Virus record (IMG/VR): IMGVR_UViG_3300032731_001452 | Location: 5,218 to 69,217 of that record | Reading direction: 5' to 3' (one strand) | DNA from: a virus | Length of the DNA stretch: 64,000 bases | Shown here: piece after piece, positions 7,252 to 63,519 of the stretch | Layout: each line of letters opens with the position of its first letter | Numbering within the stretch: position 1 is the first letter of the stretch | The notes under the pieces: model-generated | Told to the model about the DNA's origin: nothing | The model's database searches: none | What the model saw: the letters and a program-made list of their open reading frames with translations, nothing else | Translations under genes and position numbers: made by a program

Positions 7252-9942
7252 CTACTCGCCCGAGTTAGCTTTCTCGTTTTCGATCTTCTGCTTCAAGCCG
7301 GCGAACTTGGGACCGAAGATGCCAGTGAAACCCTTGTTGGTTTCTTCCGGCTCTTCAGCAACGTCTTCATCGACGATCGGAATCTGCTGTGACATGCCAG
7401 ACGCCTTCACCATTTTCGCGAGGTGTTGCCGAGCCTCACGAAGGCTGTCTTCCAGGTTCTTGACCCGGTCGGCCAATGCACCACTATCCTCGTCGCCCTC
7501 CTTGAAGGCTTTGAGTTCGGTACCAAGTCCGTCAACCCGCCCCTGCAGTTCTTTCACGAGGTTCTTGACCTCACCGAGCTGTTCCGCAACCTGTTTCTGC
7601 GCCGCCTCTTCGGTCGACATTGCAAACGGGTTACCGTCGCTGAACATCTTGAAGGCGCGCTGGACGCGAGCCTTGTCCGATTCGCTGAGTTTCAGCTCAT
7701 TGGACTTGTAAGCGACGACGGTGTCTTCAACCGCTTTGCGAGAAACGACGGGGGAATCGTCGATAACGTCGTACAGGGGGTTGCTGTAAGACGCGAGGCT
7801 CTTGACCTCTCCCTCAAAGTGACCAAAGAAACCCTTGAACTTGCGCCAGTCCATAGACTTCTTCGAGCCGCTGCTATCAGAGCTGCACAGGGCGCGAAGG
7901 TTATGAATGGCTTCTTCTTCGTCGAGAATCTCCACGGTTTCCGCGGGGGTTCCACGCTGAAGCTGACCAAGCAATCCGGCCATACGGCGTACGTCCGGCG
8001 ATTCTAGCTTGAGGAGCTTGCCGAGTTCTTCGATGATTCCGAACTGAGCTTCCGAATCGACCGCTGGCTCCTCGTCGACAACCGGCGCGGCTTCAACTTC
8101 CGGCTCTTCATCGACCACCGACTCTTCAACTTCCGGTTCCGGCTCAGGTTCGCCGTCATCGGTGGCTTCCGGCTCTTCGTCACCTTCCGGAGTATCCGCT
8201 TCCGGCTCGTTTTCAGGCTCGTCGCCAACCGCTGGCTCTTCATCGGCTTCCGGCTCGTCTTCAACGTCCGGTTCAGCTTCCGGTTCAGCTTCCGGCTCCT
8301 CTGCAACTTCCGGTTCATCTTCTACCGGCGGTTCGGCGTCCTTGTTGGTTTTCAAACCCTTGTCGTCACCCTCGGAGGAAGCATCCTCCGCGGGGGCGTC
8401 CACGGTGACATTACCGTCCTGCTCTTCCACTGTCGTATCCTCCTCGAATGGGTTGTCGGCATCTGGATCGATTTGCCGAAGGTGGGAAACCAGATGCCGT
8501 TGAACTTCTTCGAGTTCATCGTCCGGAATACCCAGGTTATCATCGGAATCTAACAACATCTTAACGGCTTTATCCAAGCCGATTTGATTCAGCGTTAGCG
8601 CGCTATCTTCCACCTGATGGTGAAGGAGCAAGAAGACGGACTTGTCGCTTTCTTCGTCGTCGTCGTCAACGGCTAGCTCGTACCAACTGAAAGCCAGCGC
8701 AAACGTATCCCAGTCAATCACGTCAACATCACCGGAGCCGTCCGAAGAAGCCCACTTACGCAAATCGTCAACCACATCCGAGCTATCCCAATCCTCTTCA
8801 TCAGAGATGGGCGTTTCATGCTCCGGAAGCGCCCGGCGTAGGTAAAGGGCGACGTCTACGTAATCATCGCCGAGCGCTTTTACCTCGTCGTAAACCAGTC
8901 GCGGTCGAACTTCGATTGAATTTTCGAAGGTGAAAGCGACGCCATCGGCGGTGGCGTAATTCGCCTTGTAGTACTTGTCGTTTTCGGGATTGTAAACCAC
9001 CACATCGCCGTCGAAAACCGTCTCGAGATAGAGGGGATACCACCAGTCGCGGTCGATAGGCCCGAAAATCCCCGTCTCTTCGGCGGCTTCAACCGAAGCG
9101 GCCCAGATGTTGTTCATGAACGTACGCATGTCCATGTCGTGTAGGTCCACCGACTTGCTGCAACGAACGCTGAGCGCTTCTTTCAGCTCTGCAGCGGTGG
9201 AATACGACGCGATGCTACGCAACTTGTGGGGATTCGCCGTTGAGCTAGTTGTCTCGTCCGTCATCGCTTCCGCCTCCTTGGTGGTCGCCGCTTCGCCGAA
9301 GAAATTAGAGGAAAGTTCGGGGGGCGTTCCCTTAGCGACGTAGCTGTCTTGCTCGTGCGCTACGATACCGAGATCCTTCAAGCTCTTGAACTCTGAGAGT
9401 TCGCCGGCCTTTTCAGCTGCCATACGATACATCTTCGTGTACCACTCGATAGCTCGGGCGCGACGGTTGCACGGAATACCGACGACCGAAACTTCGTAAA
9501 TAAGGAAGTCGAGAATGCGGCGGATCGTTCGACCCGCTTCCTCGTTGAATTCAGACACGACCTCGAGTAAGCGTCCGCCAACCGAAAAACCGCTCAACGT
9601 TCCGTCGGCGATGAACTGGCGAATTTCCGCCGCTTGCTTCGAAACGAAAACCTTGATCTTGACGCCCCAACCACCACGTTCATTCTTCTCGACTGCAGCT
9701 TCTACGACGCGACCTACCGGAGCGCCGTAGTTGTGGTTGTAGAAAACGGTAGGGGAAAGAAGCAAACCCTTCGCCATACCTTCCATGGCGCTACGGTCAA
9801 AAACGTCAAACTCGAAATCAACATCGTCCGAAGTTGCCCACGCGTCGACGTAAAATTCTTCGGCGTTTACGTCTAATTCCTTGCGAACAAATTGGAATCC
9901 AACGCGGGCTTGGTACGATGAAAATTGTCCGGTAGCTTCCAC
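7252..9942 (-). CDS. Prohead protease (HK97/XkdF-like) fused to acidic scaffold region
   Basis: VFYNHNYGAPVGRV, GTLSGFSVGG and YEVSVVGIPCN protease motifs; long E/P-rich linker; C-terminal coiled coil. Confidence 0.9.
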   Translation of the reverse strand: MEATGQFSSYQARVGFQFVRKELDVNAEEFYVDAWATSDDVDFEFDVFDRSAMEGMAKGLLLSPTVFYNHNYGAPVGRVVEAAVEKNERGGWGVKIKVFVSKQAAEIRQFIADGTLSGFSVGGRLLEVVSEFNEEAGRTIRRILDFLIYEVSVVGIPCNRRARAIEWYTKMYRMAAEKAGELSEFKSLKDLGIVAHEQDSYVAKGTPPELSSNFFGEAATTKEAEAMTDETTSSTANPHKLRSIASYSTAAELKEALSVRCSKSVDLHDMDMRTFMNNIWAASVEAAEETGIFGPIDRDWWYPLYLETVFDGDVVVYNPENDKYYKANYATADGVAFTFENSIEVRPRLVYDEVKALGDDYVDVALYLRRALPEHETPISDEEDWDSSDVVDDLRKWASSDGSGDVDVIDWDTFALAFSWYELAVDDDDEESDKSVFLLLHHQVEDSALTLNQIGLDKAVKMLLDSDDNLGIPDDELEEVQRHLVSHLRQIDPDADNPFEEDTTVEEQDGNVTVDAPAEDASSEGDDKGLKTNKDAEPPVEDEPEVAEEPEAEPEAEPDVEDEPEADEEPAVGDEPENEPEADTPEGDEEPEATDDGEPEPEPEVEESVVDEEPEVEAAPVVDEEPAVDSEAQFGIIEELGKLLKLESPDVRRMAGLLGQLQRGTPAETVEILDEEEAIHNLRALCSSDSSGSKKSMDWRKFKGFFGHFEGEVKSLASYSNPLYDVIDDSPVVSRKAVEDTVVAYKSNELKLSESDKARVQRAFKMFSDGNPFAMSTEEAAQKQVAEQLGEVKNLVKELQGRVDGLGTELKAFKEGDEDSGALADRVKNLEDSLREARQHLAKMVKASGMSQQIPIVDEDVAEEPEETNKGFTGIFGPKFAGLKQKIENEKANSGE

Positions 9943-15945: not shown

Positions 15946-16602
15946 CTAACTCTCCTGGCTTTCGCCGATAATCGAGACTACCAAATCATCACTTTCTGAA
16001 AAGTTTGCGGCTTGCAAACTTTCAGAAACCTCTTGCGTTGTTTTTCTAGGTGGCGCTTCTTTTTTGTTGGGTAAGAAACGACCAAACTTTTCATCGATAC
16101 TCGACGAGTCGTCAAACGCTTCGCCGAAATCTATCTCTTCGTAATCAGACTCGTCGACCGACTCTACGGAATCATCTTCGTCTTCTTCCGGCGCGTCGTT
16201 ATCTGAAACAGGCATTCTGGGCACGGGGATTTTGTCGCCTTCCGGATCCCAGTCGTCTTCATCATCCCAAGAAACTCGTTTCTCCTCGTCAGGTTCCGCG
16301 GCTTTAGCGACCACCTCGGCTACCTCAGACACCGAATCTTCGATAATCACTGAGTGGCTTGTAGGCGCGATGATTACCGCATCGTCAACTTCTAAGTCCT
16401 CTTCTGGGATTCGAACCTCGAAAGTTATGGGCGCGATTCCATACCCATTGGCTGAGATAGCTTTCCAATTACGGGAAAGATGTCCGTCGAGAGTCGTGGT
16501 CTCCGGATCGGTAGACGCTTCGCCGTATGGATTCCCACGCTCATCAATCGTTAGAAGTGCGTGAAACCGAAAAACGAGATCTTTTGACGAGCCAGAAGGC
16601 AT
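15946..16602 (-). CDS. Acidic hypothetical protein containing an in-frame palindrome copy
   Basis: 218 aa, D/E-rich; ESLQAANFSE is encoded by the dispersed repeat. Confidence 0.65.
   Translation of the reverse strand: MPSGSSKDLVFRFHALLTIDERGNPYGEASTDPETTTLDGHLSRNWKAISANGYGIAPITFEVRIPEEDLEVDDAVIIAPTSHSVIIEDSVSEVAEVVAKAAEPDEEKRVSWDDEDDWDPEGDKIPVPRMPVSDNDAPEEDEDDSVESVDESDYEEIDFGEAFDDSSSIDEKFGRFLPNKKEAPPRKTTQEVSESLQAANFSESDDLVVSIIGESQES
16000..16022. repeat. Dispersed palindrome AAAGTTTGC-N5-GCAAACTTT, copy 1
   Basis: aaagtttgcggcttgcaaacttt with extended arms tttctga...tcagaaa; inside a CDS. Confidence 0.95.
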
Positions 16603-24170: not shown

Positions 24171-24199
24171 TAGTCGTGACTTTTTCTTTTAAAAAATCA

Positions 24200-24222
24200 A
24201 AAGTTTGCGGCTTGCAAACTTT
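24200..24222. repeat. Dispersed palindrome copy 2
   Basis: Identical 23-mer abutting the TGA of ORF 24223-24555. Confidence 0.95.
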
Positions 24223-24555
24223 TCAGGAACTACAAAAATCAGGCGCGTTTGCATCGCAAACGATAGAGAACTTACTCGCAACCAAAAAAGCGGCTACGGG
24301 AAACGTTCGAATATCACCGCTAACATCTACAACGCGCGCGTGGAAGTAATAGATACCCGTTTGATCTAGATCGTCGGTAACGATGGTATAGCTCAATTCA
24401 CCGGGATTTACGACATCAACCGTGGCTGTCCACGTGTACTCCAAACCATCGGGCTTTCGCACGCGGAACTCTGTGACAGTAGCTCCGGTCAGGTCGATAA
24501 GAACGGAAGCGGTGATAACATCGCCAGTGTCGTTCAGGTAAAAAGTATCAGACAT
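24223..24555 (-). CDS. BppU-like Ig-fold virion protein
   Basis: DTG...IDLTGAT...VRKPDG...GELSYTIVTDDLDQTGIY motif. Confidence 0.7.
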   Translation of the reverse strand: MSDTFYLNDTGDVITASVLIDLTGATVTEFRVRKPDGLEYTWTATVDVVNPGELSYTIVTDDLDQTGIYYFHARVVDVSGDIRTFPVAAFLVASKFSIVCDANAPDFCSS

Positions 24556-36929: not shown

Positions 36930-39230
36930 CTAGCTATCTTGCAACTTATCCATGATGGTTTCGCGAAGAGACTTAACGTCGTCGGGGTGTTCGCGAAGAT
37001 ACTGGATGGTAGCCTCGCGACCGTTACCAATCCGATCCCCACCGTAACTATGCCAGTTACCGCTCTTCTCAATGAGATCAAACTCAAGAGCTAAATCAAG
37101 CGTCTCACAAAGCTGATCGATGCCGCGACCGAAGATAAGATCAACCTCAGCTAGACCAAACGGCGGGGCGAGCTTGTTTTTGACCACGCGTAACTTCAGT
37201 CGATTACCGATTCGAGTCTCACCCTTCTTGATGCCACCTAAGATACGAACGTCAATTCGAACCGACGAATAAAAACGAAGCGCCTTCCCGCCGCTGGTCG
37301 TCTCGGGATTTCCAAAACCACCCGTTCCGATCTTGAGTCGTGTTTGGTTAATGAAAATCACCATCGTTTTCGTCGTTCGCGTGTTAGCCACGAGCTTACG
37401 TAGTGCCTGACTCATCAGCCGGGCCTGTAGCCCTGGTAGGCTATCTCCCATGTCACCGGCTAATTCGGCTTTTGGAGTCAACGCTGATACCGAATCAACA
37501 ACGATGATGTCAATTGCGCCGGATCGAACAAGAGTGTCGACAATCTCCAACGCTTGCTCGCCGTAATCCGGTTGGCTGATTAGCATCTCTTCGACGTTAA
37601 CGCCCACGCCTTTCGCGAGCGAAGGATCGAGAGCTTGTTCGGCGTCGATAAAAGCAGCAATACCGCCCTGCTTTTGAACCTCTGCAATTGTGTGAAGTGC
37701 GAGGGTGGTATTGTGCGTCACGAATCCGTTAGCGTTAAGCGATGCGGTTTGCTCCATCGCGAAGTCAAACGTCGGTTCGGGCTCGTTCTCCGTTACGCTT
37801 TCAACCCGATCGTAGTAATACCAACGCTTACGAATCTCCGCTAATCTAGCTAAGATGATTGGATCGCCAATCTCTTTGAAAGCCTCCGAAATCAATTCAA
37901 GACGGTTGTACGTAACGAGCGCGCGTGGGGACGGCGCCATATAACAATCCATGAGGACGTTAAGCTCGCGGTTAGTCTCGGCGGAATCGTACAAATCTCG
38001 TAAAAGACCCCCTAAGCAAGGAATGGAATCATGGTTTGTTGAACCACCGTCTCCGTGTAATCGCAAAAGTTCGTCATGTTTCTTCGCTCGGGATGAAGAT
38101 CTAGTTCCCACCACTTGAATGAATTTACGAGCTGCATCACCAGCCATCGTTAACTGCCAATAATTATTATTGGGGTACTCCGCAACATGTTTATCGCGCA
38201 GTAAACCAATGATACCGAATCGTAGTTGGAGTAAGAGCTTTACGTCATCCAATAATTCGCGGCTAGCCGACACGGTTTCAATACACATCTTACTCGGGTG
38301 GATAAAACACTCACAATCAAAATACCCACGAAGTACCTCAAGAAGCGCGGCGTCATTGAGTCGACGAACTCGAGAGCCGACGATTTTATCTGGGCTATTA
38401 CAAGGTTCCCACCCCCAAGATTCGTAAAATTTCGCAGCCGCTTCTACGCTGTTGAAGTGATAATTTATCGACGCGGTGTTACTTCCGCTCGGATAAACTT
38501 TTGGCTCCACACCGAAAATCGAAGACCCTACTCGTGCAATAAACTCCTTGATATCCGGATCGTCATTTGTAAGCCCGAGTCGAACACGATTGAAATGACC
38601 GTCCGCGAGGCTTAATCCAGCAAAATAAGCCTCGTCCGCATTACAAGCCATCATAAATTCGTGATTACGAACAATCTCACGATCGCTCACGAGGTAATCA
38701 CCAACCTCAAGTTGTTTAACTTGCTTCCATACCCAAAAACCATTCTTGCTCATAACAAGTTGCGGCTGATTAGCGGTTGGACGAATGTGAGCACCGGAGA
38801 ACGAACGGATGGTAAAAGTGGGTTTACGGTTGTTGTGAGTGAAATGCGTCGTTTCTTCGATTTCACCGTTTCGGTTGTACAAAGGAAATTCCGACGCTGT
38901 CGTTCGATTGGTACAGGTTGCTTTCAAACCCTGCATTTTGAATATTTCACCGATAGTCAACAAACCATATGGAGTTCCAATTCGGGTGTCCGCGGGTAGA
39001 CACTTACCGCTTGATTCTGGGCCAAATATCTCGATTACACGACCACGCGGAAACCCACCAATATGTAACTCGTGGTCAAGCTTCATTGAGCCGGTGGTTA
39101 CGACGTCAACGTCCATGGGCTTATCGCCCATTTTCATAATCGCGCCCTTGCCGTACAGCTTCTCGATATCCTTCAACGCTTGTTCGTAACCAAACCCAAC
39201 CGGCTTACTTTCTTTCTTTTTCTTTGCCAC
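36930..39230 (-). CDS. recA: RecA recombinase with intein (about 335 aa after splicing)
   Basis: [19 protein letters not shown]|[23 protein letters not shown] and FINQ. Confidence 0.97.
37710..39002 (-). mobile_element. LAGLIDADG intein in the RecA P-loop (431 aa)
   Basis: Begins CLPADT, ends GFVTHN before Thr; motifs [10 protein letters not shown] and LRGYFDCEC. Confidence 0.95.
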
Positions 39231-39680: not shown

Positions 39681-39711
39681 TGAAGAATTATAGCGGTTCG
39701 ACACAAAACCA

Positions 39712-39734
39712 AAAGTTTGCGGCTTGCAAACTTT
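39712..39734. repeat. Dispersed palindrome copy 3
   Basis: Identical 23-mer abutting the recQ stop codon. Confidence 0.95.
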
Positions 39735-42677
39735 TCAACTTCGACAAATATCGCACGTTCCGCACGTCCAGTCCGCCGGTTTGGATACATCACCGAAGTA
39801 GTCGAGAATCTGCTTTCGACGACACTTCGGTGTTTCGCAGAAGTCGATGATTTGCTGGACAAGCAGCTTAGCCATCCGACGTCGCTTGTCGATCTCAACC
39901 CAATCCATGGCGTCGTCGATGTCTTTCACTTCGATGAGCTTCACGCCACCGCTACGTTGCGGTGGCTTATACTCGATCGCCACGTTATTGAGGCTCCGCA
40001 AAGCCGCGGAGACGTGCTTCTTCTCCATCTCGAGCGCCTTCGCCATGTCAATGGTAGACACCTCAAACCACACGTGCTTTACGACACGCATTTCTTGCAG
40101 GTACTCAAGTACTTCCGCGGCTCGACCGCGGAACTTCTTCTTGGGTTCGATATGCGCCACTTCGCCGATATCGTTGGCGCGGAACTTGCGAACCACACCA
40201 GCCTTGAGCATGAAGTTCCAAACAGCGCCGATGTGGGCGTCTTGAATCCATTCGCCGATTTCAGCGGCAAAAGCACCCTGCGAAACGAACAGCTCGCCGC
40301 TAGGAATGTTACTGAGCCGTCGAATCGTATGTTCGTAGACAGCTCGGATAACGCCGTCAGGCGGCCACGACATTGCTACGAAGAAATCCTGAAGCGAACG
40401 GTCACCCGGTCGATACAGCAACGCTACGCGAGAAGGCTCGCCGTCACGACCGGCACGACCAATCTCTTGGTAGTAAGCCTCAACGGAACCCGGCATTTGC
40501 ATATGCGCGATACCGCGGATATTGGATTTATCGACGCCCATCCCAAACGCGTTCGTGGCCACGATGAGCTGCGCTTCATCATTCATGAAAGCGTCTTGTA
40601 CCGCCGTGCGTTTCTGCGCGGTCATTCCGCCGTGGTACGGTTTTGCCTTGAAGCCTGAACTACACAAAACGTCGGCGGTTTCTTCAACTTGCGAACGAGT
40701 TCCGCAGTACACAATCATCGAACCTTCGACGTTGTCGACGAACTCAAAGAGGGCGTCCAACTTCTGCGGTCCGTAAGTTTTGATTATGTCGATCTCGAGG
40801 TTGGGCCGATCGAATCCATGAACGAGTACGTTGGCGTTCTTCATCTCGAGCTGTTCCGCGATATCTTCACGAACCACCGCGGTCGCTGTTGCGGTAACGG
40901 CGAGACAAGTGGGGTTACCAAGCTGCTTTCGAACGTTAGCTAACTGCAAATACTTCGGCCTGAAGTCGTGACCCCACTTACTGATACAATGAGATTCGTC
41001 GATAGCTAACAGCGACACCTCAACGTCCAACTTACGCATGAACGTAGCCGTCAAACCTTCAGGTGCAATGAACAACGTCTTGATTCTACCCTCGTTTACG
41101 TTGACGATGGTAGCTTCTCGCGTGGCGTCGTTCATGGTGCTGTTGTAAGCTGACGCTGGAATGTTCAACTTCAACAAACCATCAACTTGGTCTTTCATGA
41201 GGCTGATGAGTGGGCTGATAACGATCGTGAGACCTGGAAGCATGAGTGAGGGGATCTGGTACGTCAGAGAGTTATGTAAAACAAACTCATCAGCAACAAA
41301 ACTAGCCTTAAATCCATTGTTTTGACTTTCGATAACAACGTCAAAAGTTTCTTTTTCTTCTACTGGTCCAAGATATTTTATCTCATCCCAGAAAATATCA
41401 TTCTTGGATAATAAATGACATTCGAAACCTTCAATGCGACCACTTCTTTTAGCAAACATCTCGCGACTCATTCGGCGAGAATTTTTAAGATAGAAGGAAC
41501 TGTCGAATACGTACGTCTTACTAAGCTTAACGAGACGCCTATCTCTATCCAACAAGTCCCAGTAGGAATAAGGAACGACATCGACGTTGGTGTTGGACTC
41601 GCTACTCTCCAACTTTCCCCACAACGCTCGGAAAGAATGAAATTTCTTACCAACTAACCACGGTTGGATAAGTTCGTTAAAGATTGCCAGGTCACCATGA
41701 CCCGAAATAGACAAGATCCAACTATCTCTAACGCCGCCTTGATACTTAGCGAGTTTGTATCGAAAACGAGACAAAATTCCGCATCGTAAAAACAAGTGTT
41801 GTAGTTGTTTGATTAACGCCTTAGAAGCCGATGTATATGCTACCGAATGCTCCTCAATCCACCCACCACCTGAAATTACTCTACCTAAAAATCTACAAAC
41901 CTGATCGGTAGACGTAAGAAACAATTGGCTAGGAACCACCCTGCTTGGCGAATGAACGCCTAATAATCCGTACTTTTTCAACAACAAATTCAAAGGGTTG
42001 CTACTAGCTCCAGCTTTTCCGTCTCGTCTACCCGGACGGGTGGTTGCGGATAGCTGCATTGAGCGTCCATTATACCATGGCGTACACCCTAAACTCGTAG
42101 TTAGGCAGCTACACAAATCCAGCAAGTCTTGATCTGCTTTGGTGTAATTAGGCGTTTGGCTGTAACGACTAGAACCATCGCATAGCATCAATGCGATTAT
42201 GTCTAATTCAACTTCTGGAATGAGTTGCGAACCATTCAGGTCAAACGAACGAGGCGTGGCTATAAGCTGACCCTCAACCAAATCTCGAACGGTTTGTTCG
42301 CCTCGGCCTGTAAATACTCGATGCTCCAAGGAAAGCCAAGTTTTCCTCCCGGAGCGTAGCCTAATCCACTTACCTTTCTTAACGCCACTAAGGATTACCT
42401 CCAAGGGCTTCACAATTCTTTGATATCCGCATTGATCGTGCGACACAACTTCAAACGGAATCCCAGCTTCCCATCGCCTATACAACTCTCTGCCTGACAC
42501 CACTTCGCCAGTGGATAACGGAACCTGAGCGTCGAGATGAACGCACTTTCCCGCGCCGGTTGGCGTTACAAATAACGTATCTCTACCAGAAAGAATCGAC
42601 TCAATCGTTTCAAGCTGACCGTCACGGAATGACGAGAAACCAAACCACTTCTCTAGAACTTCGATAGGATCGTTCAT
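39735..42677 (-). CDS. recQ: RecQ-family DNA helicase with intein
   Basis: FGFSSFRDGQ, PTGAGK|S, SPLISLMKDQV, IDESHCISKWGHDFRP, ATNAFGMGVDK, YYQEIGRAGRDG and the RQC Zn site CRR...CGTCDIC. Confidence 0.95.
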   Translation of the reverse strand: MNDPIEVLEKWFGFSSFRDGQLETIESILSGRDTLFVTPTGAGKCVHLDAQVPLSTGEVVSGRELYRRWEAGIPFEVVSHDQCGYQRIVKPLEVILSGVKKGKWIRLRSGRKTWLSLEHRVFTGRGEQTVRDLVEGQLIATPRSFDLNGSQLIPEVELDIIALMLCDGSSRYSQTPNYTKADQDLLDLCSCLTTSLGCTPWYNGRSMQLSATTRPGRRDGKAGASSNPLNLLLKKYGLLGVHSPSRVVPSQLFLTSTDQVCRFLGRVISGGGWIEEHSVAYTSASKALIKQLQHLFLRCGILSRFRYKLAKYQGGVRDSWILSISGHGDLAIFNELIQPWLVGKKFHSFRALWGKLESSESNTNVDVVPYSYWDLLDRDRRLVKLSKTYVFDSSFYLKNSRRMSREMFAKRSGRIEGFECHLLSKNDIFWDEIKYLGPVEEKETFDVVIESQNNGFKASFVADEFVLHNSLTYQIPSLMLPGLTIVISPLISLMKDQVDGLLKLNIPASAYNSTMNDATREATIVNVNEGRIKTLFIAPEGLTATFMRKLDVEVSLLAIDESHCISKWGHDFRPKYLQLANVRKQLGNPTCLAVTATATAVVREDIAEQLEMKNANVLVHGFDRPNLEIDIIKTYGPQKLDALFEFVDNVEGSMIVYCGTRSQVEETADVLCSSGFKAKPYHGGMTAQKRTAVQDAFMNDEAQLIVATNAFGMGVDKSNIRGIAHMQMPGSVEAYYQEIGRAGRDGEPSRVALLYRPGDRSLQDFFVAMSWPPDGVIRAVYEHTIRRLSNIPSGELFVSQGAFAAEIGEWIQDAHIGAVWNFMLKAGVVRKFRANDIGEVAHIEPKKKFRGRAAEVLEYLQEMRVVKHVWFEVSTIDMAKALEMEKKHVSAALRSLNNVAIEYKPPQRSGGVKLIEVKDIDDAMDWVEIDKRRRMAKLLVQQIIDFCETPKCRRKQILDYFGDVSKPADWTCGTCDICRS
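41271..42545 (-). mobile_element. LAGLIDADG intein in the RecQ Walker A motif (425 aa)
   Basis: Begins CVHLDA, ends FVLHN before Ser; motifs IALMLCDG and FLGRVISGGG, the second lacking the acidic residue. Confidence 0.95.
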
Positions 42678-42768
42678 GAACACCGCCTTCGAGGTGAATG
42701 ATAGCGGTTGAACGCGGAAGCAACCGTCAACTTGACAGATCTTACGGAGTGCCTATCGTTAAAAGACA

Positions 42769-42841
42769 GGGCGTGTAGTTCAGTGGAGAACGGTGGGAGT
42801 TCAGGCCCGCGTCGGTGTGGGTTCGACTCCCGCCACGCTCA
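42769..42841 (+). tRNA. tRNA-like RNA with aberrant 8-nt anticodon loop (AGTTCAGG; possible UCA anticodon)
   Basis: Acceptor GGGCGTG/CACGCTC, D-arm GTTC/GAAC, T-arm GTGGG-TTCGACT-CCCGC; no encoded CCA; TTGACA...TATCGT promoter upstream. Confidence 0.75.
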
Positions 42842-46418: not shown

Positions 46419-46497
46419 TGGCTCCCCAGGTCCGGTTCGAACGGACGTACTACACGGCTTAACAGGCCGCAGCTAACCCCAACTCAGCTACTGGGGA
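46419..46497 (-). tRNA. tRNA-Asn(GTT)
   Basis: TCCCCAG/CTGGGGA acceptor, loop CT-GTT-AA, CCA. Confidence 0.88.
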
Positions 46498-46951
46498 ACA
46501 AACGAAAAATTTCAATCACGTTGTCATCGATTCTCTTCTGAACGTCTTTTGGAATTGGAACCTTACCTACCCCAAAATATTTACCAGTCAAGAACAAGCC
46601 GCACGTTCTGCTACAAGACGTAAACCTTGAACCTTTTGTTAAATGGGTCTGACGGTATTCGCGCTCAAAAACACAACCGCAATTAGGACATCGAAGCCGC
46701 GCCATTTGCCTTCCTCGCTCACGATTATGCTCGCTGTTGTGCTTCCCCTTCTTCTTCAACTCCAAATTTTCAAAACGATTATCACGCTTGTTTCGGTTCT
46801 CGTGGTGAACCACCTCATCGCTTTTTGGCACCACCCCCGTGCGTCTCCAGTAAACCAAATGATGCTCATAGCAGTATTTTCCACGGTACTTCTTACCTGG
46901 ATATTCTTCTAGAGCGACAACTAACTCGTATTCACCATTTCTCATGGCCAT
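46484..46951 (-). mobile_element. Free-standing HNH homing endonuclease in the tRNA cluster
   Basis: YEHHLV...VVHHENRNKRDNRFENLEL plus C-terminal CPNC/CSRTC; its stop overlaps the 5' end of tRNA-Asn. Confidence 0.88.
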
Positions 46952-48123: not shown

Positions 48124-48209
48124 CCGGGTTCGGGAATACCTGGCAGGGTGGTCCCGTACTCACTTGAGACTAACGTCCCGTGATTGGCTTAGGAATTATA
48201 GCAGACCGA

Positions 48210-48533
48210 CTAACTCTTTGTGGCGTCGAGATCGAAAACTGGATTACCGCTGAACTGGACGCCGGTCAAAACGATTCGCATCAAATTCTCATCGTCGTGA
48301 TGGCGCGAAATACCGTAGCCGGTAAACTTCCCGTCGTACGCGAACTTTTGCCGATTCGGAACGACTCGAATCAATCCTTCACCCGGAAGATCATCGGGTA
48401 GTTCATCCATGAGGTTGACGTGCTTCACCAACTCAAGGGTGTCGCCGTTTGTCTTGACAGACTTGAATCCAACGGCCTTGCCGTTGATAGTTACCGCAAA
48501 GTTGTAACCTTTGATGATCATGATAATCTCCAA
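48210..48533 (-). CDS. Hypothetical beta-rich protein, faint tail-tube resemblance
   Basis: YNFAVTINGKAVGFKSV; start uncertain. Confidence 0.5.
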   Translation of the reverse strand: MEIIMIIKGYNFAVTINGKAVGFKSVKTNGDTLELVKHVNLMDELPDDLPGEGLIRVVPNRQKFAYDGKFTGYGISRHHDDENLMRIVLTGVQFSGNPVFDLDATKS

Positions 48534-48699
48534 ATCAAAAATGAGCGCCTAACAGCTGGCACGCGGGAGAGTTGATCAAGCTCTCAGAAACAATGACCTT
48601 TACCGCGCCTGTGTCTAGGGTGGTCGAACCCTCAAGGTTCCTGGTTTGCGCTCGGTAATACGAACCCTTTTTCCATAAGTTGATTATAGCGGTTGAACT

Positions 48700-48891
48700 T
48701 TAAGATTCAGCGCAACTCGAGGGAGATACGCTGTTGTCGACGATCGTCATTACCCCACACCGTTTGCAATTTGGGGATTTTGTCGTAGGCAACACGAACA
48801 CAGCCTTACTGCACGAAGGACGCCTAAAATACGAAGCTAGCGCCGGCATAAGGTCGTCTTCGTTAAACGTTTTCGTTCGCTGTTTACTCAT
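48700..48891 (-). CDS. Small Cys-containing protein
   Basis: Probable ATG 48891 (MSKQRTKTF); PSC and CKRCG. Confidence 0.45.
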   Translation of the reverse strand: MSKQRTKTFNEDDLMPALASYFRRPSCSKAVFVLPTTKSPNCKRCGVMTIVDNSVSPSSCAES

Positions 48892-48913
48892 TTCGCGATT
48901 CGGTACAAAACCA

Positions 48914-48936
48914 AAAGTTTGCGGCTTGCAAACTTT
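48914..48936. repeat. Dispersed palindrome copy 4
   Basis: Identical 23-mer; shares the flank acaaaacca with copy 3. Confidence 0.95.
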
Positions 48937-48996
48937 TGAAAAGTGCGAGCTTTCCACTCGCTGGGTACGGAATCTCTTCCCTTTCCATGAACAATA

Positions 48997-49214
48997 GGTC
49001 AGGAGGCGGGTATCTAATCCGCTCTTTTATTCGAGACGTCCGTACTCTGGATGGGCCGCGGACGAGTTCTTATCCTCTTAGTCACCACAATCGGGACTCG
49101 GGAGGTATAGAGTGCGATTTCGCCCCATCCCAGTTTCGCTGTTCGTTACTCTCATCCTGCGAAACAAAAATCGTCAGCCACGGATAATCTTGCGTACATC
49201 CCGTTACCCCGACC
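48997..49214 (-). ncRNA. Candidate tmRNA/tRNA-like mini-RNA (about 218 nt)
   Basis: Ends pair GGTCGGG/CCTGACC; second helix GGGATGT/ACGTCTC; T-arm-like GCGG-ATTAGATAC-CCGC; internal ORF ADDFCFAG*. Confidence 0.45.
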
Positions 49215-49318
49215 GTTCCTGCTGACACTACGCTGGCGACTTTGTCCCTCTTTGCGTAGTTATCACAATTGCCAAATTATGATGTTTGTAATCACTGTTA
49301 GCTAACTGTAATTAGTTC

Positions 49319-49660
49319 TGGTGGACTCGGCGGGAGTCGAACCCGCGTGTCACGTGTTTTCGCAAGACGTCTACGTAGTCTAGCTCATCTACCCTCAGAG
49401 CGGGGTTTGTCGGAACTTTCCCCGACGGTCAACAACTCTTTATTTCAAGGTAACTTCGGTTGCCTAAGTTTCACCTCTATCGCCGTGTCGTTATGCCTTT
49501 TCTCGCTACCCAGCGAATTCTCGCAAGAAAGACACCCGGGCTCACACGGTCCCGGGAAGCAACAGCTTACGCTGCGGCCTGAAGAGGAGTTTCGTCAACT
49601 CGTTTTCATTTTACTACGCAATCTTGGTTGCAATCACCCGATCGAAACCGTTACGAGCCC
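49319..49660 (-). ncRNA. ssrA: tmRNA (SsrA)
   Basis: 5' GGGCTCGTAACGGTTTCGAT; 3' GACACGCGGGTTCGACTCCCGCCGAGTCCACCA; G3:U70 and A73; tag frame 49567-49596 gives (A)DETPLQAAA*. Confidence 0.93.
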
Positions 49661-49859
49661 ATTTCAAAGATCTATCGTTCTTCCAATGTAAAGACTCTCA
49701 AGCCGATCCTCAAGGTGCTACTCGAGAAATCCCCAACGCCTTTGCCTGCCCGCTTCACGATCTCGAAAACTGTTGTCGAAACCATCCACGGGCCATCCAG
49801 CAAATAGCGCGCGCTAAGTTGCTTGAAAGCCTTTAGATTGAAAGAACACGAACAATTTT

Positions 49860-50750
49860 TCGGCCACCCGGGACTCCCCTATGGGCGGGCGGCCACCCCA
49901 GAGAATACCCCCGGGGAATACTTGAGCAGTGTTTACAACAGCATGCTCAGGCTGGGCTCATATGCTCACGACTTTCAACTACCAAGTCTAGCAAATCTGC
50001 CAACGGTTTCCGCAATTTTTGGCAGCTACGCTTCTTCGCGTTCTTCGGTGCGCACTGGCAACCGAATTACTTGGTCGGTTTTGCCCACCCCACCGACCAA
50101 AGGGTTAAACAACTACTGAGCTTAAGAGGTGGACCAAGTTAAGCTCCGGGCAGCTCCAAGACCGTAGCCCGGGAGCGCCCCAAGATCGCTCTTGGGGGAT
50201 GAAAAGTGCTGAGCTAGGTACTCAGCGTGGAGACCTTCCGTCTCTTTGGGTAGTTATACCGTATTTATTTCGTCAAAGCCCTCTACACTACCAGAGGTAC
50301 TAAGCTATCTACTAGTTCATGAGGACAGTAGCTGCCCGGTGCCGGCAATCATGTGGCCTAGCCACCAGCAGGAGTTCTCATCCTACAGACCACTTACGGA
50401 TGAGGTGTCTAAATTTGCCAGGTCTAGGACCATCAGCCCGGCTGAGGCGCATGCCATTATGCTAACTAGCCCTGCCTTAGTTTTCATCAACGTTAGTGTC
50501 AGCGACTAACGCAGACTACAGTCACTTTTATACCCGGTGACTACAGGCTGAACACGCATGGGGCGTGGTTCATCTAAAAACGATTGCAGCCAGGATTTTC
50601 ACCTGGAACCCAAGGTTTCCTCCGTCTTTCAACGGACTATTACTCACACGTAGCTTAGGTTTGCATCAATTCCTCCGAATTTAATCGGTCTACAATCAAA
50701 CTTCCAACGTTCACGCAACCTTTTGCGTCAACGTTTTATTATAGTTTCAA
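49860..50750 (-). ncRNA. Candidate large structured non-coding RNA(s)
   Basis: About 900 nt with no credible CDS and more than 15 adjacent hairpins; sigma70 promoter at 50764-50793. Confidence 0.6.
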
Positions 50751-50763
50751 ACAACTGAGATAG

Positions 50764-50793
50764 GTTATAGCATCGACTAGCTAGCTGCGTCAA
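50764..50793 (-). promoter_or_regulatory. Sigma70 promoter driving the ncRNA/tmRNA region
   Basis: TTGACG-18-TATAAC with TG extension; AGCTAGCT palindrome in the spacer. Confidence 0.7.
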
Positions 50794-50797
50794 GGAC

Positions 50798-51196
50798 CTA
50801 ATCGTCTTTTTCTGGCCACCCCAAAGCACGCATCGCCGGACGACTCATTAGGCGGCCTTGAAGCCCGTGAATGTCGTGACAAGTCTCTTCATCATCCATC
50901 GGGTGAAGCTTCGGAAGCGCGAAGATTCGCGTAGCCGCTTCGGTAACAGCATCCAACGCTTCGATCTCTTGATCGTTCATGCCTGCGTCTTGTAAGCACT
51001 GAAGATCCTTGGGTACGCCACCTTCCTTGAGTCGAAGACGATCGTCAAGCTCGACGTAGGCTTTGATCCACGTTTCAGCCCACTCCATCAATTCCTTACG
51101 AGCTGCGTATTGCACGTGTTCTGATTCGCGCGGCACTAACTGAAGCTTCTCGATAAGTTCGCGAAACTGGCGTAACGGTTCGTCAATGTTTCTCAT
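50798..51196 (-). CDS. Hypothetical protein (probably leaderless)
   Basis: True start likely ATG 51196, since the track ORF runs into tRNA-Gln; LPKLHPMDDEETCHDIHGLQ motif. Confidence 0.65.
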   Translation of the reverse strand: MRNIDEPLRQFRELIEKLQLVPRESEHVQYAARKELMEWAETWIKAYVELDDRLRLKEGGVPKDLQCLQDAGMNDQEIEALDAVTEAATRIFALPKLHPMDDEETCHDIHGLQGRLMSRPAMRALGWPEKDD

Positions 51197-51213
51197 GATT
51201 ATATTATAGCGGT

Positions 51214-62569: not shown

Positions 62570-63519
62570 TCCGTTTCCTCCACGGCTTCACCCAAAGCCG
62601 CCGATGTGTCGTTCCACAATATGTTAAATTCGGTCTCGAATTCCGGCGTGCCCACCATCGGCTTCGTCATCCGCAACCATTCCCGAAGCAATTCCGAAAA
62701 GTTTGCGGCTTGCAAACTTTCAGAAAACAAAATTTTTCCGATCGAATTCCCGCTCGCCCACAAATCCGCCATCCGCAAAACCACCATCCCCGCGAATTCG
62801 TACTGGTCGCCGTCTTCGCCGTCCAACGTACTACTCAGCAAAGCCAACACGCCGTTCCGGTCCAATCCCACAACAAGCGGAATTGCAAACCGCCCGCGCA
62901 ACGACGTCAAGGCGCCGACCTCCACGTTCAAAATACCCGCTGCCGTTTCGTCATTCGTTAATGCTAGCAAGTAAACCGCCGGCAACCGCCACCCTTGCTC
63001 TTCTGGCCGATCGTTCCGCCATCCGCTTCCACGGCCCCAGTCGCCCGTCATCAGCGAAATCCGCACCAACCCTTCGATAAACCGCAACTGGTCCAACGTT
63101 TCGCTATTCCCGCCCCAACCTTTTCCTTCCCCCGCCAACTTTTCAGCCAGCGTAATCCCCTTCCCAGGGTCTCCAGAGCACCGTTCTCTCTGCCGGTCAC
63201 TGGGGCGCCCGTCAAACGAAAACGTCGGCCGTTCACCGCGGACCTTGGGCGAATCGCCGTTAGGCGATTTCGACCAGTCCACGTTTGCAACGCCGTCCAC
63301 TTCACAAAGCCAGGCGTGCGCCTCGGGGAACAGCGCGGCGAACTGTTCCGTCACAGACGGCAGCTTCACGGGCGGCGGTTCGTAGTTCGTTGTCGACGGT
63401 GCCTTCTTTACCAGGTGGTCCGGTGTCTTCATCGTGCGCGCTCCCTCTTCGATCGTAGCGCCGTCACCGCCAGTGGTTGCTGGTTGGGCCGTCGTGCTGT
63501 GGTCGTTTCGTTTGTTCAT
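62566..63519 (-). CDS. Hypothetical protein, first gene of the early-type array; contains an in-frame palindrome copy
   Basis: 317 aa downstream of a promoter; FSESLQAANFSE. Confidence 0.6.
   Translation of the reverse strand: MNKRNDHSTTAQPATTGGDGATIEEGARTMKTPDHLVKKAPSTTNYEPPPVKLPSVTEQFAALFPEAHAWLCEVDGVANVDWSKSPNGDSPKVRGERPTFSFDGRPSDRQRERCSGDPGKGITLAEKLAGEGKGWGGNSETLDQLRFIEGLVRISLMTGDWGRGSGWRNDRPEEQGWRLPAVYLLALTNDETAAGILNVEVGALTSLRGRFAIPLVVGLDRNGVLALLSSTLDGEDGDQYEFAGMVVLRMADLWASGNSIGKILFSESLQAANFSELLREWLRMTKPMVGTPEFETEFNILWNDTSAALGEAVEETE
62698..62720. repeat. Dispersed palindrome copy 6
   Basis: Identical 23-mer inside a CDS, same frame as copy 1. Confidence 0.95.

Follow-up and report, generated by a model that had tools for sequence, protein, structure and literature searches.

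The RNA-like element that lies downstream of the tmRNA gene in this phage genome is most likely a relic and not a second ribosome-rescue RNA. Our preferred reading, which we hold with about as much confidence as doubt, is that the 218-nt element represents a diverged partial copy of the tRNA-like 3′ half of the neighbouring tmRNA, which is non-chargeable and passively transcribed in the tmRNA trailer. True homology of its 3′ block to the tmRNA is probable, and sequence comparison would put the probability of a chance match near 1e-3.

The window, meaning the whole stretch of DNA that was analysed, comprises 64 kb of the 69-kb IMG/VR record IMGVR_UViG_3300032731_001452, which is estimated to be ~40% complete. 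Its source is an uncultured freshwater phage, of which the record is a fragment with a tRNA cluster; the DNA runs that contain window sequence are freshwater and viral metagenomes. The window encodes a portal protein, a protease-capsid fusion, a DnaB-like helicase, RecA and a RecQ-like helicase. In tblastn searches against phages the portal protein gave its best matches, at ~24-26% identity, to actinophages, which are the closest cultured phages. The tRNA calls in the window number seven, all but one on the minus strand, and the single tmRNA called sits within an ORF-poor stretch of ~2.2 kb (48545-50797). The locus has the following features.

49319-49660, minus strand: genuine one-piece tmRNA, matching Rfam RF00023 over its full length (56.1 bits, E 2.6e-19)
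49215-49318, minus strand: spacer from the tmRNA CCA to the candidate element, with two local hairpins in the minimum-energy (MFE) structure
48997-49214, minus strand: candidate element, 218 nt, whose isolated fold has a terminal helix, a second helix and a T-arm-like hairpin round an insert of ~150 nt
49201-49214, minus strand: 5′ strand of the terminal helix, GGUCGGGG, then UAACGG, in the same order as at the true tmRNA 5′ end
49049-49131, minus strand: long imperfect hairpin GGGAUGG...CCCAUCC, present in every predicted fold and unrelated to tmRNA
48997-49054, minus strand: block probably homologous to the last 67 nt of the tmRNA, with P2 3′ strand, T-arm and 3′ strand in order
49006-49022, minus strand: T-arm-like hairpin, 13 of its 17 letters as in the true T-arm, ungapped and of equal length
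48911-48939, minus strand: intrinsic-terminator-like hairpin, the first such hairpin downstream, ~60 nt past the candidate

Probable sequence kinship with the neighbouring tmRNA

The genuine tmRNA has the acceptor GGGCUCG/CGAGUCC with the G3:U70 pair, an encoded ACCA, a T-arm at 49346-49330 (minus strand) and a tag frame that reads ...RVDETPLQAAA*. The initial annotation had described the downstream element as a tmRNA-like RNA with a variant tag, and the sequence features on which it drew are present. The 5′ strand GGTCGGG (49214-49208) is complementary to CCTGACC (49003-48997), with a possible eighth pair, a G:U, between 49207 and 49004; GUAACGG follows at 49207-49201, where the true tmRNA has G-UAACGG. 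A second helix can be formed by CGGGAUGU (49203-49196) and ACGUCUCG (49039-49032), the T-arm-like hairpin GCGG-AUUAGAUAC-CCGC lies at 49022-49006, and a mini-ORF of 8 codons, ADDFCFAG*, is found at 49178-49152 on the minus strand.

Evidence for kinship is concentrated in the 3′ 58 nt (48997-49054). Aligned to the last 67 nt of the tmRNA, this block gave z-scores of 5.7, 5.3 and 4.9 under three scoring schemes, and none of 1000 shuffles or 1296 window segments reached its pairwise score. The two sequences are ~74% identical with 4 indels, and the matching blocks follow the order of the tmRNA: AGA.UACG, GACGUCU, CGAA (P2 3′ strand), the T-arm and UCC..ACC. In a reciprocal scan of 12778 windows on both strands (128 kb searched) the best non-self match of the 58 nt was the tmRNA 3′ end under all three schemes, tied in one of them. 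Furthermore, the candidate scores 67 against the neighbouring tmRNA and 13-50 against the 3′ ends of seven further phage tmRNAs or tRNAs in which T-arm and acceptor are the same.

Over the whole length, global alignment to the tmRNA scored 253, compared with 188 ± 19 for shuffles (0 of 300 reached it) and a maximum of 246 over 1148 window segments. When the alignment was split, the 5′ 50 nt gave z 0.9-1.6, which is not significant, and did not recover the tmRNA as query in a window-wide scan; the middle 110 nt, which hold ADDFCFAG*, gave z about -1. The proposal of a tmRNA paralogue is thus supported for the tRNA-like 3′ half, in both the shuffle and the reciprocal tests, and not for the middle and the 5′ 50 nt. 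Since the middle part is unlike tmRNA, the copy is partial or heavily remodelled. A tmRNA-derived duplicate fits the data to the same extent, with same-strand homology near the gene for the 3′ 58 nt and not for the middle or the 5′ 50 nt.

The first three codons of the mini-ORF do resemble GUU GAC GAA of the true tag, in frame. ADDFCFAG* is not homologous to known tags and is without the usual Ala-Ala end, and the surrounding middle part has no overall tmRNA likeness (z about -1); on our preferred reading the ORF is fortuitous. At the 5′ end of the element, a terminal-helix strand directly before UAACGG arose in 103 of 20000 shuffles, a number that rose to 1596 of 20000 when one mismatch was allowed. 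The 5′ strand with UAACGG therefore exceeds chance by the exact test, more weakly than the 3′ block.

Several results suit a different explanation, in which an ordinary hairpin-rich trailer spacer resembles tmRNA by chance and the similarities were chosen post hoc. An nhmmer search that started from the tmRNA and allowed E values up to 100 did not report the element and returned nine chance matches elsewhere. The strict local alignment to the tmRNA is not significant (100 of 300 shuffles), and in a window-wide scan with the tmRNA 3′ 67 nt a coding-region place on the plus strand, 62581-62690, equals the candidate (91 versus 89). These three results also weigh against a relic. For the 17-mer of the T-arm comparison with at most 4 mismatches, ~1.6 matches per window are expected by calculation and two were seen, one of them the true T-arm. 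Chance is also consistent with the lack of significance in the 5′ 50 nt and middle and with the weakening of the 5′ test when a mismatch is allowed. Because the coding-region place scores equally, the case for homology rests on the reciprocal match together with adjacency, at p ~1e-3. Under three schemes the block finds its best non-self match in the adjacent tmRNA 3′ end, with strand and order preserved, and the pairwise score was reached by none of the shuffles or segments, so that chance resemblance seems unlikely to us.

Predicted fold and tests for a working tmRNA

We searched the locus with the covariance models RF00023, RF04321, RF01849-51 and RF02544. At gathering scores cmsearch found only the true tmRNA, and the candidate gave no match at E up to 10 either, whether 1.4 kb or 341 nt was searched, so that the relaxed search suggested by the initial annotation lent the element no support. 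RF04321 made one partial match (18.3 bits, E 0.31), in which the true T-arm and CCA are joined over the spacer to GGG-GUAACGGGAU. ARAGORN did not call the candidate at default settings or with -ps, and at default the tool also missed the true tmRNA. With -ps80 it reported a 'tmRNAp' at 48937-49421 with the tag VADDFCFAG*. There were 27 such calls in the window, mostly inside genes, and this one persisted in 66 of 200 constructs with the downstream 519 nt shuffled; the call therefore has no discriminating power. If the element is a relic, it is a caution that relaxed ARAGORN searches and partial matches to the permuted model can flag a false second tmRNA.

The G3:U70 wobble is the identity element for alanine, and alanylation and trans-translation require this third-pair G:U, a normal 5-bp T-arm and a CCA end. 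The candidate departs from the genuine tmRNA at each of these points. As had been noted before, G3:U70 is missing (the third pair is U-A) and no CCA is encoded, the helix being followed by UAUUG. A G:U is found at the fifth pair (49210:49001) and could count as the third only with a mature 5′ end at 49212; it lies five letters past the T-arm, at the place of U70 in the true tmRNA. The T stem has 4 bp and the loop 9 nt, where a 5-bp stem and a 7-nt T-loop are expected; the fifth pair is lost to A.C, and the loop reads UUAGA for the UUCGA of the true tmRNA, with A for C. Between hairpin and helix there is a gap of one letter (8-bp helix) or two (7-bp helix), and none in the true tmRNA. The candidate has no recognisable pseudoknots. 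Since the third-pair G:U, the 5-bp T stem with its normal loop and the CCA are all missing, we would expect neither charging by alanyl-tRNA synthetase nor trans-translation. Of the three readings first put forward for the element (a decoy, a non-degrading rescue RNA and a decayed duplicate), the decayed duplicate is hence the best supported, because the marks for alanylation and a normal T-arm are absent. The non-degrading rescue RNA found no support.

Folding of the isolated 218 nt gave exactly the described shape as the minimum-energy structure, with pair probabilities of 0.7-1.0 overall and 0.97-1.0 for the terminal helix (7-8 bp). The stability of this fold is at chance level (z = -1.21, with 25 of 200 shuffles equally stable), and so the proposed tmRNA-like fold holds as the MFE structure of the isolated RNA and not as one that exceeds chance. 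Across 49000-49249 on the minus strand, 150-nt windows gave z -0.8 to +1.1, and the 7-bp helices with a span of 150-260 nt number 7, no more than shuffles yield (9.9 ± 4.0). The trailer as a whole is structured (z -4.5), a signal that comes from its two ends; the segment 49150-49299 has z -2.9. Within the 414-nt trailer, or within tmRNA plus trailer, neither long-range helix is predicted (probability 0.00), and enforcing them costs +4.2 kcal/mol. There the local hairpins win, and of the described helices only the hairpin 49006-49022 persists, at 0.95-0.99. The upstream strand could pair with the 3′ end into a fold like that of a tRNA-like domain (TLD) only once the element had been excised from its precursor.

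Such an excised form has some parallel among phages. A TLD-only sequence of mycobacteriophage DS6A is described as resembling molecules that inhibit tmRNA, perhaps by titrating SmpB (PMC4131195, PMC11915505). The present element is similar to the DS6A TLD-only and CDS-less forms in being phage-borne and reduced to about the tRNA-like domain. It differs from TLD-only forms in its ~150-nt unrelated insert and in adjoining an intact tmRNA; moreover, those forms are described as having been recognised as tmRNA by database search or screening (PMC4131195, PMC11915505), whereas this element was matched by no model used.

By analogy with these molecules, the element might be a working TLD RNA, excised from the tmRNA precursor, that would bind SmpB or other tRNA-handling factors but add no tag, and would thereby modulate trans-translation of the host or the phage. 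We regard this as distinctly unlikely. The isolated fold, with its terminal helix, 4-nt joint, second helix and T-arm-like hairpin, would suit it, as would the 5′ strand with UAACGG (103 of 20000 shuffles), the G:U 49210:49001 at the place of U70, and a 65-nt island over the 3′ block that is kept in a diverged contig (see below). Against it, the covariance models were silent even at E 10, the T stem has lost its fifth pair and changed its loop and stands 1-2 letters before the helix, the fold has zero probability in the precursor, and its stability is that of shuffles. Furthermore, a decoy would likewise take up the partner of the tmRNA that the phage itself encodes, and no SmpB gene was found in the 69-kb record (~40% complete). 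A slightly more doubtful version, again by analogy, has a second TLD-derived RNA made from the same precursor, which would bind SmpB and perhaps be charged without imparting a degradation tag, and would tune or block host ribosome rescue; if its mature 5′ end were 49212, the G:U would become the third pair and the 3′ tail would read C-CUA. If a TLD-derived RNA were made here it would be a natural relative of the DS6A inhibitor that lies beside its parent gene.

Possible origin of the presumed copy and comparison with known systems

For a relic, the most likely origin is a local duplication or recombination that would have produced a copy of the P2 3′ strand, the T-arm and the acceptor 3′ strand. 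Transcription would probably be passive, within the ~400-nt 3′ trailer of the tmRNA, because the spacer that separates the candidate from the tmRNA showed no promoter-like site and transcription would meet its first terminator-like hairpin only ~60 nt past the candidate.

Some of the data do not sit easily with a relic. Had a whole-gene copy decayed neutrally, the 3′ block would not have kept ~74% identity beside a remainder that can no longer be recognised; therefore either the 3′ part alone was copied or something preserves it. The intact 8-bp terminal helix beside UAACGG hints at constraint, and so does an assembled contig of 466 nt from run X3, of which only 49002-49066 (65 nt, 6 differences) falls on the stretch at 80% likeness. 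From a second X3 contig, of 291 nt, only 49246-49320 (75 nt, 5 differences) does so. Since these islands are the only parts of the contigs on the stretch, a diverged relative seems to keep both islands and not their flanks. Within 48997-49214 itself no variants were seen in runs X3, X4 and X6 where covered.

No homologous locus of the element was found in phages, IMG/VR, JGI metagenomes or a further IMG/VR record, G001. A blastn search of 48400-49800 against GenBank phages gave no match. Approaching IMG/VR through the M16 peptidase gave 18 loci that are not syntenic (at most 38% identity over the best segment, top matches 31%), and neither the neighbouring ORF of 103 aa nor the capsid-protease protein led to a related locus there. 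A 26-mer of the candidate and a two-gap pattern of the 16S-like motif had no matches. The pattern of the tmRNA 3′ end recovered seven IMG/VR contigs that have only the T-arm and acceptor in common with it; four carry permuted two-piece tmRNA genes (L021, L022, L023 and L026) and one a standard gene (L025). In L025, an abiF RNA motif (9346-9382) lies ~50 nt upstream of the tmRNA 5′ end. The pattern of the tmRNA 5′ end gave one unrelated tmRNA and two chance matches in coding sequence, and a two-anchor pattern in JGI metagenomes gave five chance matches, none homologous.

Like a standard one-piece tmRNA (RF00023), the element has a closing helix and then UAACGG; another helix and a hairpin occupy the positions of P2 and the T-arm, and a short ORF lies inside. 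In contrast to such a tmRNA, it is 218 nt long instead of 342 nt and has no model match, third-pair G:U, CCA, pseudoknots or Ala-Ala tag end.

Integration of genomic islands or prophages is described as leaving direct repeats or fragments of the ssrA 3′ end (PMC3146451, PMC4131195). The element likewise lies downstream of the tmRNA gene and repeats its 3′ end in the same orientation, as a direct repeat would, and it might be the displaced repeat left by a mobile element that integrated into the tmRNA 3′ end and has since shrunk to ~265 nt. We consider this improbable. Repeats of the att type are usually exact, but the two copies here show ~74% identity and 4 indels; the repeat is diverged, gapped and inside a phage genome, with neither integrase nor cargo. 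There is no ORF between the repeats, and searches with PF00589 and PF00239 gave no match to a tyrosine or serine recombinase in the 69-kb record (~40% complete). Nor would a scar be expected to have an upstream complementary strand with UAACGG.

Aquatic phages are reported to have permuted (two-piece) tmRNA genes (RF04321; PMC9004378), and tmRNA genes as such are rare in phages, with 402 of 18,146 genomes in one survey as it is reported (PMC9004378). The order of the present locus, with T-arm, CCA, spacer and a GG...UAACGG-like start, is similar to that of a permuted gene, and this order accounts for the weak RF04321 match and for the relaxed ARAGORN call. Unlike in a permuted gene, the 5′ strand of the candidate pairs with the 3′ strand of the true acceptor at only 4 of 7 positions, and the true T-arm contributes most of the RF04321 score at the locus. 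A tandem duplication is an arrangement from which permuted tmRNA genes could arise. A partial TLD copy beside an intact tmRNA would show that local duplication or recombination takes place inside phage tRNA regions and would supply the raw material from which TLD-only inhibitors and permuted two-piece genes are made. If the element is indeed a second, TLD-derived RNA of the kind outlined above, it would be a living example of the tandem arrangement behind permuted tmRNA genes.

That the element is a small protein-coding gene, on either strand, is extremely improbable. An ORF of 48 aa lies on the minus strand (49082-49228) and one of 83 aa on the plus strand (48936-49187); neither matches a PHROG. 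Translation table 4 gives no longer frame, reading TAG as Q yields only a 163-aa frame on the plus strand with a TTG start and two read-through TAGs, and the surrounding genes and RNAs lie on the minus strand.

The 16S rRNA-like hairpin and further features of the phage

Within the T-arm-like hairpin, 13 letters at 49008-49020 are identical to E. coli 16S rRNA 785-797; the 9-nt loop and the two G-C pairs that close it are the same in both. This would suit a mimic or captured fragment of 16S rRNA, in which the '790 loop' of helix 24 is preceded by a site that resembles the 530 loop. Collinear alignment to 16S 514-812 gave a score in the 1% tail, reached by 3 of 300 shuffles and by 4 of 534 segments, and a contig from run X6 covers 49008-49163 without difference and begins with 8 extra primer-like letters. 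We take these 8 letters to fit the universal 806R primer. An nhmmer profile of 105 diverse 16S segments, in contrast, matched 14 nt only (E 4.7) and did not find the 530-like part, RF00177 gave no match, and the window has 15 further places, most of them in genes, that match E. coli 16S, 23S or 5S rRNA exactly over 13-15 letters. The hairpin is also accounted for, letter by letter, as the tmRNA T-arm with four changed letters. With a likeness at chance level and nothing wider than one motif, an origin in 16S rRNA is very improbable and was rejected.

Because the hairpin matches the 3′ end of what we presume to be a universal primer site, the phage can turn up in 16S amplicon data. Run X6 is a small aquatic run, and such matches are a possible source of off-target reads in 16S surveys. 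If the element is a relic, the primer match of its hairpin is a second caution, in that it can bring a phage into amplicon data.

The terminator-like hairpin past the candidate has five near-identical copies in the window, all on the minus strand (48913-48937, 39711-39735, 24199-24223, 15999-16023 and 62697-62721), with 0 expected by chance. The repeat is a 25-nt hairpin with a stem of 10, the loop AAGCC and a T-rich run behind it. In the sequencing runs the hairpin is multi-copy, with a depth of 112 and many different flanks in X3, and it is probably the standard terminator of the phage group. A search with the repeat found one related record, G001, which has at least 8 copies (locus L029); compared with 48545-50800 as query, G001 has nothing in common except the terminator copies.

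Other observations concern the gene content of the window. RecA and the RecQ-like helicase, both on the minus strand (36930-39230 and 39735-42683), each contain an intein with a LAGLIDADG domain, and an HNH endonuclease gene (46484-46951) is located within the tRNA cluster. The tRNA at 42769-42841 (plus strand; Rfam 44.5 bits) lies on the strand opposite to the other tRNAs and has an anticodon loop of 8 letters, which ARAGORN reads as 'ttca' (Glu|SeC?). No recoding is evident, since long frames in the window end in all three stop codons.

Upstream of the tmRNA, ~1.1 kb (49661-50797, minus strand) has no minus-strand ORF of at least 40 aa beyond 49803, the one frame being a 43-aa frame with a TTG start at 49672-49803. 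Rfam searches of this ORF-free leader (49640-50830) at E 10 gave no credible match. The leader is partly structured (z -3.3 at 50600-50749) and could hold further RNAs or be a long leader.

The motif CCGCTATAAT occurs exactly at 48683-48692, 39687-39696 and 51203-51212 on the minus strand and with one mismatch at 48195, 42698 and 57586. With at most one mismatch there are 7 matches in all against 2.1 expected, six of the seven on the minus strand. The motif is likely a −10 element of phage promoters; two of its exact copies lie downstream of a terminator copy, at distances of ~15 nt (39687) and ~220 nt (48683).
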